This document shows positions 1,960 through 57,573 of a stretch of 64,000 bases of DNA, one piece after another. The DNA is taken from positions 52,769 to 116,768 of the forward strand of contig JBBSXB010000001.1 of assembly GCA_038046005.1 (NCBI GenBank). Direction: 5' to 3'. The translations under genes and the position numbers were made by a program. Below the pieces are notes generated by a model. That model saw only the letters and a list, made by a program, of their open reading frames with translations. It searched no databases and was not told where the DNA came from. The DNA comes from Nanobdellota archaeon. Lineage in GTDB: Archaea; Nanobdellota; Nanobdellia; Pacearchaeales; GW2011-AR1. Every line of letters begins with the position of its first letter. The stretch's first letter is position 1.

Positions 1960-3372
1960 ATGAGCTATATGATTTATGATCTTATTTTGTTGGGAATATT
2001 CATAATTGCAGTTGGAAGTTTTTTATACAGAAAAAGAGAAAATTTGAAGAAGGAAGGTTTGCTTTTTCTTTACAGAGCAGAGTGGGGAATAAAATTAATA
2101 AACAGCGTAGGGAACAAGTATAAAAAAACATTAAAATTTTTGAGTTACATTTCAGTGATATTAGGGTATCTGCTCACTGTAGGAATTCTTTATCTTACTT
2201 ACTCTATTGTTAAAATTTATATATTGCATCCTGAAGTTGTTAGTGCTATAAAAGTCCCGCCGATAACACCATTGATTCCCTACATTGACAAGGTTGTTCC
2301 TTTCTTGCCTCCTTTTTATTTCACATACTGGATAGTAATTTTAGCGATTGTCGCAATAAGCCACGAATTCGCACATGGAATTTTTGCAGTTTATAACAAA
2401 GTGAAGATAAAAAAAACAGGATTTGGATTTTTCCCATTTTTCTTGCCAGTATTTTTAGCCGCTTTTGTTGAGCTTGACGAAAAAGTTATGGTAAAAAAAT
2501 CAAATTTTGCGCAAAGAGCGATTCTTGCTGCAGGAACATTCGCTAATGTAGTTACTGCAGTTATATTCTTTATAGTTTTAGGATTATTTTTCATGGCAGC
2601 TTTTCAGCCAGCAGGAATTACTTTTGATGATTATTCTTATTCTGCTTTAAGTGTTTCATCAATACACTCAATTAATGGCGTCATAGTAGTCAACACTTCT
2701 GAAGAAGGTCTTCAAAAATTAATAAAAAATGCTTCTTTCAATGAGATTGAGGCAGGAGGGAAAAATTATGCCGGTATTAAAGGATTTTCAAGTGATGGGA
2801 AAACTATAGCTCTTTATGATGATTCTCCTGCAATAAAAGCAGGATTAAATGGTGCCATAACTGAAATTAACGGACAAAAGATAATGAGTGTAGATGCTTT
2901 GTCTCAGGAATTATCCAAACATAATCCAGGAGAAAGTGTAATCATAAAAACAGAGACAAGCAATGGAACCAAGAATTATAATATTACTTTGGGACGAAAT
3001 CCTGCTAATTCTGGGAAAGTTTGGTTGGGAGTTGGTTTTTTGACACAAGAAACGAAGGGATTTTTCAATAAGGTTTTTGCATCAATTTCTTCCTTTAAAA
3101 AACCTAATATATACTACAAGTCAGTAATCGGAGAATTTGGATGGTTCATATACCACTTGCTTTGGTGGCTCATACTAATAAGTTTCAGCGTCGCATTGGT
3201 TAACATGCTGCCAATAGGAATTTTCGATGGAGGAAGATTCTTTTATCTAACAATTTTAGCAGTTACTGGAAAAGAAGTTTGGGCCCGAAAAATCTTTAAG
3301 TGGGTAACTTGGCTTTTCATACTTCTGTTGATAGTTTTAATGGTTTTTTGGGCCTTTGCAGTTATATTCTAG
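1960..3372 (+). CDS. Site-2 protease family (M50) membrane zinc metalloprotease with PDZ domain(s)
   Basis: 470 aa polytopic membrane protein. HEFAHG zinc-binding HExxH in a TM helix. Central soluble region with PDZ-like sequence (GIKGFSSDGKTIALYDDSPAIKAGLNGAITEINGQKI). Second-TM LDG-like motif. Confidence 0.8.
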   Translation: MSYMIYDLILLGIFIIAVGSFLYRKRENLKKEGLLFLYRAEWGIKLINSVGNKYKKTLKFLSYISVILGYLLTVGILYLTYSIVKIYILHPEVVSAIKVPPITPLIPYIDKVVPFLPPFYFTYWIVILAIVAISHEFAHGIFAVYNKVKIKKTGFGFFPFFLPVFLAAFVELDEKVMVKKSNFAQRAILAAGTFANVVTAVIFFIVLGLFFMAAFQPAGITFDDYSYSALSVSSIHSINGVIVVNTSEEGLQKLIKNASFNEIEAGGKNYAGIKGFSSDGKTIALYDDSPAIKAGLNGAITEINGQKIMSVDALSQELSKHNPGESVIIKTETSNGTKNYNITLGRNPANSGKVWLGVGFLTQETKGFFNKVFASISSFKKPNIYYKSVIGEFGWFIYHLLWWLILISFSVALVNMLPIGIFDGGRFFYLTILAVTGKEVWARKIFKWVTWLFILLLIVLMVFWAFAVIF

Positions 3373-3425
3373 AAGGTTTTTTAAACTGCAAAGAATTGTT
3401 ACAACGATATAAAAAAGTGGTGAAA

Positions 3426-3737
3426 ATGGGAAAAATTTCAGAAAAACAATATACTTTTATGGTTGCAATTGTTGGGATTTTGATAGTTTTATCATTATTC
3501 TTAATCTTAAGTGACTTTATTGAATTTAGAACAGGAAACGTTGCAAAAGACGTTCAAGGAAAAAGGGAATGTTTTGTTGGGACCTGTAATACTTATTACA
3601 GATGCGGCGAAGCCGGAAGTTTACAAAAGAACACATGCACAGTAAATAAAGAAAGCGGGACTTGTGATCCCATAGAACCACCAAACACATGCCAATTTGT
3701 TGAAGAAGTTTGTAACACGAAGAAAGTTATTTGTTGA
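3426..3737 (+). CDS. Small membrane-anchored cysteine-rich protein (about 103 aa; start taken at internal Met)
   Basis: N-terminal hydrophobic anchor (FMVAIVGILIVLSLFLIL) followed by an ~65-aa domain with 10 Cys (CFVGTCNTYYRCGEAG...CTVNKESGTCDPIEPPNTCQFVEEVCNTKKVIC). The track ORF 3300.. starts within the preceding gene, so the start was moved to 3426. Confidence 0.4.
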   Translation: MGKISEKQYTFMVAIVGILIVLSLFLILSDFIEFRTGNVAKDVQGKRECFVGTCNTYYRCGEAGSLQKNTCTVNKESGTCDPIEPPNTCQFVEEVCNTKKVIC

Positions 3738-4049
3738 TTATCTAGAAGGAACATATTCTGCTTCCCAAAAAGAACCTTTACAGCCTTTCAAAGATAATAA
3801 TTTTAAGGCATTCATTAATTCAATTTGTTTTGTATTACCAAAAGTTAATTTTTCTAAACCTCTTTCTATATCTTTTATCCTGATAATTTTTCCAGAGTGA
3901 GTTTCGACATGAGGATCACGATTACTGTCTGGACCTAATGGAAAAACAGCAAAATACCCCTTTATTTCCAAGCCTATTATCAAACTTTCTCTTTCAGAAT
4001 CACTTAAATTTTGGTAAGTATCCCAATCAATTTTCATTTCACAAATCAA
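3738..4049 (-). CDS. Hypothetical protein (103 aa)
   Basis: ORF immediately downstream of two co-oriented small ORFs. No recognisable motif. Confidence 0.35.
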   Translation of the reverse strand: MICEMKIDWDTYQNLSDSERESLIIGLEIKGYFAVFPLGPDSNRDPHVETHSGKIIRIKDIERGLEKLTFGNTKQIELMNALKLLSLKGCKGSFWEAEYVPSR

Positions 4050-4095: not shown

Positions 4096-4446
4096 TTATA
4101 AGTCTATGACACCCTCTTTTGTCAATGCAGCAAATCTAATTCCAACTGGAAAATTTATCAGCGCAGAAATCAAAGCCATGTGCTCTTTTCCTTCTCCAGA
4201 AGCTAAACTCAAAGCTACTTCCATGCCGCTAATTTTTCCCTTGAGTTTTTCTGAAAATTCATCTCTAAGCTCTTTTATTTTTTTGCTAAAATCTACCTTA
4301 ATAAATTCAAATGGTTTTTCATGCTTGAATTCTTTTGCAAAGTCATCTCCAAAAATAATTATCTTATCCCATTCTCCATACTTCATTAAACCAGAAACCT
4401 GCGCCCAGGTTCCCTTCCCAGTTGATAATAAAGCTACGAGTTCCAT
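4096..4446 (-). CDS. Hypothetical protein (116 aa)
   Basis: Start codon 1 nt after the stop of the upstream ORF 4448..4645 (coupled, or a frameshift-split gene). Confidence 0.4.
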   Translation of the reverse strand: MELVALLSTGKGTWAQVSGLMKYGEWDKIIIFGDDFAKEFKHEKPFEFIKVDFSKKIKELRDEFSEKLKGKISGMEVALSLASGEGKEHMALISALINFPVGIRFAALTKEGVIDL

Positions 4447-4447
4447 T

Positions 4448-4645
4448 TTAGTCTATTTTGGCTGTTTCTGTAATAAGTTTAATTAATCTAGACTGATCTG
4501 CTTCAACTTCACCTACTGTTTTTCCATCAGCTATTCTTTTTTGAGTTAGATGCGGTCTTGGATGGCCGTAATCTGGGTCGTTGCAGTATGCACAATTTGT
4601 TGGACAGGGAGTCCACTCTTGAGGATTATATTTTTGATTGTTCAT
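4448..4645 (-). CDS. Small protein with CxxxCxxC motif (65 aa)
   Basis: TPCPTNCAYCNDPDYGHP carries a C-x3-C-x2-C triad resembling a radical-SAM or Fe-S ligand spacing, but the protein is far too short for a radical-SAM fold. Confidence 0.35.
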   Translation of the reverse strand: MNNQKYNPQEWTPCPTNCAYCNDPDYGHPRPHLTQKRIADGKTVGEVEADQSRLIKLITETAKID

Positions 4646-55756: not shown

Positions 55757-56551
55757 TCACTCTTCAATTTTTCTTATAAGGTCTGTAAATGCAGGTCTTG
55801 TGATTAAGACACCTGCGGTGATTCCTATTAATGTTGTAACTGCAAAACCTTTAAGCAAGCCTGCTCCAGCCCACAATAAAGGCAACAATGAAACAAAAAC
55901 AGTGAAATAAGAACCGAGTATAATTGCAAATGCTCTCTTCATTTTTTCTTTAAGACTAAGGACCTTTCCATGTTTAGCCTCATCTATGACCACAATTTGC
56001 TGATCGACTCCAGTACCAATAGTTGCAAGTATTCCTGCAATTCCGGGAAGGTCAATATTCCATTTTATCAAAGCAGCAATTCCCAGAATTATTATCACTT
56101 CAGAAAAGCTTGTCAACAACAATGCAAGAGAAGTTTTGATTTTTTTGTATCTTACAAAGATTATTATAGAGACTGCCAAGAAAGAGGCGATGCCTGTAAT
56201 AAAAATGGCCCGTGTAAAATCCTTTCCATCATTATCTCCTTGGTACATACATCCGCTGCCAAGATGAACAAAGTAAATTCTTCTTAGTGCACATTCTGTG
56301 GATAAGTTTATCGCAGCGCTTACATTTGACTGTAGAGTTTCCTCTTTATGTTTTTCACACCAGTCAATGTTGGGTTTACCAGTTTTGCCAATAGCATTTA
56401 TAACAACTGATGGTTTTGTTTCATCTAAGAAAGAGGCTAGATCTTTAATATTCGTTGGATCGACAATTTCTCGGTCAACTATTTCATAACCTAAACTGCT
56501 AGAAATTCTCGTACCCAAAAATCCTTTGCCAAAAACAATTTGTTCATCCAT
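55757..56551 (-). pseudogene. Chimeric ORF: N-terminal ~110 aa of an RmlD-type reductase fused in frame to a diverged copy of the last ~150 aa of SecD
   Basis: Residues 1-110 align with the RmlD N-terminus (IVFGKGFLG...PSVVINA...). Residues about 113-264 are about 60% identical to the SecD C-terminus encoded at 57654..58150. The junction lies at GK(D/E)FT, shared by both parents. Confidence 0.6.
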
Positions 56552-57573
56552 CTTTCAAAGGTCTCCACCAAGATTCATTTTCTCTATACCATTCCACTAA
56601 ATTTTTTAAACCTGTGTTAAAATCTGAATGTTTTGGCTCAAAACCTAGCCCTCTAAATTTTGAATCATCTATAGAATATCTAAAATCATGACCCTTTCTG
56701 TGATCTACTCTTTGCACCATTTCTTCACCAACCCCAAATATATCGAGAAGTGTTTTAGTAACGTCAGTATTTGTTCTCTCATTTCTTCCCGCAATGTTAT
56801 AAATTTCTCCAGGTTTTCCTTTTTGGGATAGATGTCATATTGCTCTACAGTTATCCTTTACATCCAGCCAATCTCTAACATTTAATCCAGGATTTTCTAG
56901 AGACCACATCAAGGGAACTTTCTTTCCATCAATAAGATGTGTTATAAACAAAGGTAAAAATTTTTCAGGAAATTGAAAAGGGCCGTAGTTGTTTGCACTT
57001 CTTGTCACAATTACTGGAAGGCCATGAGTATAAAAATAAGATCTTGCAAGATGCTCCGCTGCTGCCTTTGTTGCAGAATAAGGGCTTCTAAGGTTTAGCA
57101 CATCACCTTCTTTTGAAGATGGGCTAAACTCATCTAGACTTCCATACACTTCGTCTGTTGAAACTTGTAAAAAAAGACTAACATTACTTTTCAAAGAAGC
57201 TTCTAATAGATTACGCGTACCCCTAACATTTGTTTCAACAAAAGAAGAAGAATCACCAATACATCTGTCAACATGAGTTTCTGCCGCAAAATGAAAAACT
57301 ATATTAGGTTTATATTCATTAAAAATTTCAGACACTTCTGGTGAACAAATGTCTACTTGCTTGAATTTATATCTTGATCGCTTCCCAGTCCCAAGGCCTA
57401 ATATGCATGCACTCTAAATTTCTTCCCTGCCCCGCGTATGTTAGATTATCAACATTGCAAACTTGGTTTTCTTCTTTAAATTCTGGGTCGTGAAGTAAAT
57501 ACTCAATAAAGTTGCTCCCTATAAACCCGCTTCCGCCTGTGACTAGAATTCTTGGCATTTTAAAAGCCAACAA
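56544..57573 (-). pseudogene. rmlB: dTDP-glucose 4,6-dehydratase (rmlB) disrupted by one frameshift and one in-frame TGA
   Basis: N-terminal piece (ILVTGGSGFIGSNF...NVDNLTYAG) at 57367..57573. Central piece (HFAAETHVDR...STDEVYG...YSATKAA...NNYGP) at 56835..57335. In-frame TGA at 56835..56837, after which the C-terminus (KPGEIYNIAGRNE...DHRKGHDFRYSID...WW) continues in the same frame to 56544. A +1 shift sits in a G-run near 57384..57394. Confidence 0.7.

Follow-up and report, generated by a model that had tools for sequence, protein, structure and literature searches.

The DNA analysed here, referred to below as the window, is a 64-kb stretch of an archaeal contig with a G+C content of 33%, and the gene with which we are concerned is a small cysteine-rich gene located immediately 3' of, and on the same strand as, a gene encoding an M50 (site-2) protease (Table 1). 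The genes near this pair encode an FKBP, aIF5A and the proteins of the L1/L10/P1 operon, and further along the window are found a large ribosomal protein cluster, SecY, a YidC-like DUF106 protein, AglB, a glycosylation cluster and SecD/F. The M50 gene product carries the motifs HEFAH and NMLPIGIFDGG, with both HExxH and DG intact. The predicted product of the small gene (full sequence of 103 residues, MGKISEKQYTFMVAIVGILIVLSLFLILSDFIEFRTGNVAKDVQGKRECFVGTCNTYYRCGEAGSLQKNTCTVNKESGTCDPIEPPNTCQFVEEVCNTKKVIC) is identical to a protein from an NCBI metagenome-assembled genome (MAG) entry, where it is annotated as 'hypothetical protein AABW51_00425, Nanoarchaeota archaeon'.

Table 1. Features of the window discussed in the text (residue numbers refer to the cysteine-rich protein)
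Feature	Position (nt)	Strand	Remarks
M50 (site-2 protease) gene	1960-3372	+	470 aa; separate 5' neighbour; Pfam PF02163, E=2.5e-26; weak PDZ matches
TATA-box-like element, TTTTTTAAA	3377-3385	+	Putative promoter; directly after the M50 stop, ~45 nt upstream of the ATG
Shine-Dalgarno-like motif, GGTGA	3419-3423	+	2 nt between motif and ATG; read directly from the sequence
Small cysteine-rich membrane protein CDS	3426-3737	+	103 aa and TGA stop; start ATG
N-terminal tail, residues 1-8, MGKISEKQ	3426-3449	+	Predicted cytoplasmic; translated (codon differences mostly synonymous)
Hydrophobic segment, residues 9-29, YTFMVAIVGILIVLSLFLILS	3450-3512	+	Putative signal-anchor/transmembrane helix by hydropathy; helix 6-35 in full-length AF2 model
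Juxtamembrane motif TGNVAK, residues 36-41	3531-3548	+	Family consensus [TS]GxV[AS]K, from alignments
Cysteine-rich C-terminal module, residues 49-103	3570-3734	+	Predicted extracytoplasmic and disulfide-bonded
Small convergent gene	3738-4049	-	99-103 aa; stop abuts that of the cysteine-rich gene
Gene for conserved protein, MELVALLSTGKGTWAQVSGLMKYGEWDK...GKEHMALISALINFPVGIRFAALTKEGVIDL	4096-4446	-	116 aa; no Pfam match
ORF with CPTNCAYC	4448-4645	-	65 aa; no Pfam match
Two adjacent ORFs	55757-57335	-	Resemble pieces of an NAD-dependent epimerase/dehydratase

An earlier sequence-only reading of this DNA had placed an ORF of about 100 residues at 3426-3737, and in this it was exact, the strand (+) and the peptide it quoted both being correct. 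The ORF is almost certainly a real gene. It is under purifying selection, with Nei-Gojobori dN/dS ratios of 0.055 against the 83% identical orthologue in locus L001 and 0.25 against the 63% identical orthologue in locus L004, synonymous sites being near saturation in both comparisons; these ratios, together with the invariance of all eight cysteines in the two orthologues, rule out a spurious ORF. Two findings that the same reading had said would count against it, namely that the ORF is part of the protease frame or that it is conserved nowhere, were not borne out. The M50 gene (1960-3372) ends in another frame, at the TAG at 3370-3372, the orthologues share the position of the ATG with the window gene, and the mechanically called 'ORF 3300' is nothing more than an in-frame extension of the cysteine-rich ORF up to a GTG; the protein is, moreover, conserved in related archaea under purifying selection. 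Over codons 1-11 most of the differences among the three close orthologues are synonymous and fall at third positions, the exceptions being a G2E replacement and the in-frame deletion of a single codon, and the start codon is regarded as confirmed because these differences are mostly synonymous. The GGTGA motif preceding the ATG is kept in L001 and is not evident in L004.

Searches for relatives covered ~15 billion proteins in all, and included three word-index searches (5.8 billion clusters) and an exhaustive HMMER search (1.84 billion representatives). Six other distinct members were recovered and no more, all of them from one clade of Pacearchaeota/Woesearchaeota-like Nanoarchaeota. Two are close to the window protein, P0002 (83% identical) and P0003 (63% identical), each with 8 Cys; the remaining four, P0004 (93 aa, 6 Cys), P0006 (109 aa, 6 Cys), P0007 (115 aa, 8 Cys) and P0008 (110 aa, 6 Cys), share 22-29% identity with it in BLASTP local alignments. 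Global alignments, which covered P0006, P0007 and P0008, gave 25-28% identity to the window protein for these three, and 23-35% over all pairs of a subfamily A with a subfamily B member, the subfamilies being defined below. The HMMER search returned only P0003 and P0004, besides an 827-aa actinobacterial repeat protein (P0005, E=1e-3) that was judged spurious, and P0006, P0007 and P0008 were contributed by the word-index searches. A DNA-pattern scan of metagenomes found a single match, which was another copy of the P0002 locus, and the same kind of scan of viral contigs found no family member. The search for paralogues that the earlier reading had proposed yielded none in the 64-kb window, whether by tblastn, by a scan for cysteine-rich ORFs or by a motif scan. 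The family is extremely narrow and previously undescribed, and no relevant literature on cysteine-rich membrane proteins of DPANN archaea was found; small cysteine-rich surface proteins with a single membrane pass are, as a kind, nothing new in these organisms.

For all seven members the M50 gene is the immediate 5' neighbour, encoded on the same strand and ending 32-53 nt away, and two subfamilies can be told apart by what follows the small gene. In subfamily A (the window, L001-5 and L004) the downstream genes are small convergent genes, among them the 116-aa gene, and the L1/L10/P1 operon, whereas in subfamily B (L011 and L085-L089) the downstream gene is Taw1, a wyosine radical-SAM gene. 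Directly after the M50 stop, all seven family-bearing loci carry a TTTTTAAA box, in the variants AAGGTTTTTTAAA or AAGTTTTTAAAT, and the box is absent from L006-L010, where the next gene is convergent. In archaeal promoters the TATA box lies ~26 nt upstream of the start site, and from this geometry and the position of the box we therefore take it to be the putative promoter of the downstream gene. On this assignment the mRNA of the window subfamily would have a leader of ~19 nt containing the GGTGA motif, while that of subfamily B would be leaderless. The cysteine-rich gene is probably its own transcription unit, although read-through transcription from the M50 gene may also occur. Where Taw1 itself lies 3' of the M50 gene, a similar TTTAAA box is found ~25-30 nt before the Taw1 ATG; boxes of this type before Taw1 were seen in L016, L053, L055, L058, L060, L061, L077 and L080. 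The distance of these boxes from the Taw1 ATG suggests that mRNAs with no leader and with the canonical TATA spacing are the rule in these genomes, a regularity that can help in calling start codons in such MAGs.

All members share one layout, consisting of an N-terminal tail of 7-9 residues with a net charge of 0 to +4, a hydrophobic core of 21-28 residues, a short conserved motif, a polar linker of variable length and a cysteine-rich C-terminal module. In the window protein the 19-residue Kyte-Doolittle mean over residues 9-29 reaches 3.0, in agreement with the single N-terminal hydrophobic anchor described earlier. A compact cysteine-rich module had also been described, with ten cysteines; a C-terminal module of this nature is indeed present in the independently encoded protein, but the number of cysteines is eight (residues 49, 54, 60, 71, 80, 89, 96 and 103), with the spacing C-x4-C-x5-C-x10-C-x8-C-x8-C-x6-C-x6-C. 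Even at eight the content is far above chance: cysteine makes up 0.73% of the long ORFs of the window, the binomial probability of at least eight in 55 residues is 7e-9, and the module is enriched ~20-fold relative to the local proteome. The spacings are 4, 5, 10, 8, 8, 6 and 6 in subfamily A and 3, 16, 9, 1 and 16 in subfamily B, and the counts over the seven members are 8, 8, 8, 6, 6, 8 and 6, even every time. In a six-member alignment made without P0008, both subfamilies are invariant at M1, F25, T36, G37, V39, K41, G52, C54, Y58, C71, P85 and C89; in P0008, Ser replaces T36.

The best-conserved feature of the family apart from the cysteines is the motif [TS]GxV[AS]K, which stands just after the hydrophobic core, is matched by seven members out of seven and was not found in other ORFs with an N-terminal transmembrane segment in 770 kb of related loci. 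A more general 'TGxV' export motif following N-terminal transmembrane segments was considered and rejected, its three loose non-family matches in the 770 kb being about what was estimated for chance. The fixed distance of the conserved motif from the end of the hydrophobic core is what would be expected if it marked a processing site. The hydrophobic segment would then be a cleavable signal peptide, the motif would lie at or just after the cut, and the mature protein would be set free as a disulfide-rich peptide of ~65 residues with, for example, a signalling, antimicrobial or toxin-like function. Inspection by eye shows small residues ahead of the motif in the distant members (SIS-TTG in P0004, VSS-PTG in P0006 and IDS-PTG in P0007), as such a site would have it. 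However, in the window subfamily the corresponding residues are EF-R or YFN-P, a poor fit at -3/-1, a signal peptide that is cleaved would be expected to have a shorter hydrophobic core than the 21-28 residues seen here, and no toxin or bacteriocin family was matched, so that we consider release of a free peptide unlikely.

The window protein had been thought to belong to no housekeeping family, and comparison with known proteins agrees: there was no match in Pfam (E<=1, and also E<=10), NCBIfam or PADLOC, the PHROG matches were weak (E values of at least 0.039) and confined to the transmembrane segment, and a profile search against PDB sequences gave designed transmembrane helices only (E values of at least 1.1). 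The suggested likeness to disulfide-knotted adhesins or toxins found no support from sequence or fold. Neither a knottin/ICK family HMM nor the six-Cys cystine-knot fold was matched, the best hit being Toxin_35 for one member at E=1.7, and comparison of the predicted structure with PDB and viral folds gave no significant match. The module does resemble knottin/ICK toxins, defensins and EGF-like domains in its 50-60 residues, its six to eight cysteines in even number and the scarcity of other conservation, and the C-x-C pair of subfamily B is reminiscent of EGF-like domains, but its cysteine spacing fits none of these groups and it is predicted to be membrane-tethered rather than free. The AF2 model of the protein is unreliable. 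Among five full-length models built from a three-sequence alignment one reached a pLDDT of 73.6 and the other four ~48-54, and a model of the ectodomain only, from six sequences, reached 38.5.

The higher-confidence model has the shape of a 'lollipop', in which a long N-terminal helix (6-35) is followed by three beta strands (48-60, 65-72 and 89-102). A short charged N-terminus, a long hydrophobic helix and a small beta-rich domain are also the attributes of archaeal type IV pilin-like proteins, and the protein could on this likeness be one of them, with a class III signal peptide cut by prepilin peptidase, a helix that packs into a fibre and a cysteine-rich beta head. Directly before the hydrophobic stretch, subfamily B has RG and P0004 has DG (DGALLL). 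The [KR][GA] site that defines such proteins is nevertheless missing from the window protein, as it is from both close orthologues (...EKQ-YTFM...), and the pattern fails in six members out of seven; the broader FlaFind-type prepilin-peptidase pattern [KRDE][GA] is found in P0004 only, the window protein, P0002, P0003, P0006, P0007 and P0008 being without it. The Pfam and NCBIfam HMMs for archaeal pilin and archaellin N-termini or class III signals gave no match even at E<=10, and no pilus assembly genes occur among the window ORFs scanned. A pilin-like nature for the window protein thus appears largely refuted, and we rate this reading as extremely improbable.

The cysteine-rich module probably lies outside the cell. 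Its export would be by type II signal-anchor insertion, machinery for which is encoded in the same window (SecY, the YidC-like DUF106 protein and SecD/F). The distribution of charge around the helix differs between members: the net charge of the N-terminal tail is +3 in P0004 and +4 in P0006, where the bias clearly favours an N-in orientation, and +1 in the window protein, where, as in P0007, the bias is weak. Within the window subfamily the values are +1/0/0 on the N side of the helix against -1/-1/0 on the C side, P0002 and P0003 being neutral, and in P0008 the bias is reversed. Although the window encodes AglB, no N-x-S/T sequon is present in the ectodomain of any family member.

We also think it likely, with rather less assurance than its location, that the module is disulfide-bonded. 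Disulfides are preferred to metal sites because the cysteine counts are even, because cysteines are lost together in P0004, and because the module of the window protein lacks both CxxC pairs and His. The cysteines absent from P0004 are exactly the last two, and their joint absence suggests that these two, C96 and C103 in the window protein, pair with each other. No CxxC pair is present in any of the seven members, and His is rare across the family. Against disulfides must be set the anoxic or low-oxygen groundwater that the source organisms inhabit; no disulfide-forming enzyme was found among the ~35 window ORFs scanned. The near-neutral charge bias of the window subfamily, and the +2 after the helix against +1 before it in P0008, would also suit an inverted topology, in which the N-terminal tail is outside and the cysteine-rich part is cytoplasmic and binds zinc or another metal. 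One member gives a very weak match to the treble-clef family DUF2116 (E=1.1). The paired CxxC/CxxH knuckles of zinc ribbons and treble clefs are, however, absent from the window protein, where the spacings are x4, x5, x10, x8, x8, x6 and x6, its module has no His, the cysteines number from six to eight and are always even, and the N-terminal tails of P0004 and P0006 are strongly basic (+3 and +4), all of which makes a cytoplasmic metal-binding module very unlikely.

The distribution of the gene is much narrower than that of its neighbour. Eighty loci from GTDB species representatives, each with a related M50 protein (49-89% identity), were compared, and a local hmmsearch found the family in two only, L005 and L011. 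In a neighbour-joining tree of the M50 proteins the family-bearing loci stand at two ends of one clade, between which are the intermediates L006-L010 without the gene, and loss is therefore implied. When the same pairs of genomes are compared, the small protein is 23-35% identical, M50 61-65% and aIF5A 66-69%; the cysteine-rich protein diverges far faster than its neighbours. Fast divergence is typical of exposed proteins. The best-supported reading of the distribution is that the gene would be accessory and dispensable. Two loci, L043 and L072, hold an archaeal-type M50 locus 51-58% identical to that of the window and were deposited as Candidatus Dojkabacteria and Omnitrophota MAGs; this bacterial assignment is probably the result of binning contamination.

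The constant position of the gene, directly 3' of M50 and on the same strand in seven cases out of seven despite differing downstream neighbours, raises the question of a functional link. The protein might be a cognate substrate of the adjacent M50/PDZ protease, or a regulator or inhibitor of it, the two forming a minimal pair for regulated intramembrane proteolysis. As a rule, the substrates of site-2 proteases (S2Ps) cross the membrane once with type II topology, and small membrane proteins of ~50-160 aa are degraded by RseP (PMC10470546). With its predicted single-pass type II architecture and small size the cysteine-rich protein is comparable with RseP substrates such as HokB, sharing a length of ~50-160 aa, one transmembrane segment, an N-in/C-out orientation (here predicted) and the presence of an S2P-family protease (PMC10470546), and in the neighbouring M50 protein the HExxH and DG motifs are intact and a PDZ domain is present. 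It has no sequence similarity to the RseP substrates, however; those of Escherichia coli lack a cysteine-rich ectodomain and are not encoded beside rseP, and cleavage in the present case is only a candidate reaction. A precedent for inhibitors encoded alongside an S2P is provided by BofA and SpoIVFA, small membrane proteins genetically linked to the S2P-family protease SpoIVFB which they can inhibit (PMC9042235). Their topology, size and sequence differ from those of the protein described here, the gene for which appears to have its own promoter.

Several observations weaken the case for such a pair. That apparent promoter is one; another is that ~78 of the 80 related species keep the M50 gene without the small gene, including L006-L010 in the same clade. 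Synteny is weak evidence in small genomes, since the adjacency of aIF5A and M50 is equally conserved without any known functional link, and since the family is monophyletic and narrow its constant position may simply be inherited. A cytoplasmic tail of 7-9 residues is also too short for sequestering a regulator. A substrate or regulator/inhibitor role seems quite unlikely, and we hold it to be less probable again that the protein is a dedicated substrate or an extracellular sensor/regulator of the adjacent S2P in a minimal archaeal pair.

Other small genes lie around M50 in these genomes, and the interval from M50 to L1 has the look of a short, variable stretch occupied by lineage-specific genes. 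The gene that converges on the cysteine-rich gene in the window has a homologue in L007, and the cysteine-rich gene of L001 has the 116-aa gene immediately after it instead, with a 99-aa ORF further on. The 116-aa protein is highly conserved and its gene adjoins M50 in most of the 80 Pacearchaeota/Woesearchaeota loci; it is probably both more widespread and more interesting than the cysteine-rich gene. In the neighbouring 65-aa ORF, C-x3-C-x2-C has a radical-SAM-like spacing, and other assemblies of the genome (L091) also have a gene call for it. In other lineages, unrelated small cysteine-rich ORFs for secreted or membrane proteins occur no more than a few kb from M50, and those of L071 and L077 have no profile similarity to the family: in L071 (5407-5730, - strand) a small ORF of 107 aa with 8 Cys lies a few kb from M50, and in L077 (1-540, - strand) and L080 (1-512, - strand) ORFs of ~170-180 aa near M50 combine a signal peptide, a cysteine-rich part and an N/Q-rich tail. 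Towards the other end of the window, one of the two adjacent epimerase/dehydratase-like ORFs is fused to a SecD/SecF-like C-terminal match, and the pair, beside SecD/SecF, may reflect a frameshift, a pseudogene or an assembly problem.

Our working hypothesis, which we advance tentatively and to which we give a little less than even weight, is that the product of the gene is a dispensable surface protein restricted to this lineage, anchored in the membrane with type II topology, with an ectodomain stabilized by disulfides and a role in binding or recognition. The gene would be transcribed from its own TATA-type promoter just 3' of the M50 gene, and the product would be inserted in the cytoplasmic membrane in the type II signal-anchor manner, the short basic N-terminal tail staying inside, one helix crossing the membrane and the C-terminus lying outside. 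A short polar linker, starting with [TS]GxV[AS]K, would keep a compact module of ~55 residues close to the membrane on its outer side, where it would be cross-linked by four disulfides, or three in some relatives. Such a small, rigid and fast-evolving ectodomain could then serve as a surface module for binding or recognition, its target being a host cell, a partner cell or a component of the envelope. We infer the topology, the disulfide bonding, the retention of the anchor and the binding role alike, and of these the binding role, taken by itself, is possible but rather doubtful. It is unlikely that the protein is an enzyme.

DPANN archaea rely on contact with other cells, and their surface proteins are mostly uncharacterized orphans. 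A role in interaction with the host is plausible for a fast-evolving surface protein of such an organism, purely as something we infer, and the gene described here is a clean example of a DPANN orphan surface protein, found in seven closely related lineages among billions of sequences. As the evidence stands, it encodes an ordinary 'conserved hypothetical' surface protein whose value is mainly that of a catalogued candidate. The natural targets of archaeal site-2 proteases are listed as unknown (PMC9263693), and if the protein were after all a client of the adjacent protease it would be the first candidate natural partner, and a testable substrate, of an archaeal enzyme of this type (PMC9263693). 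Alternatively, if it is involved in partner recognition, it would offer a handle on host specificity in Pacearchaeota-like organisms.
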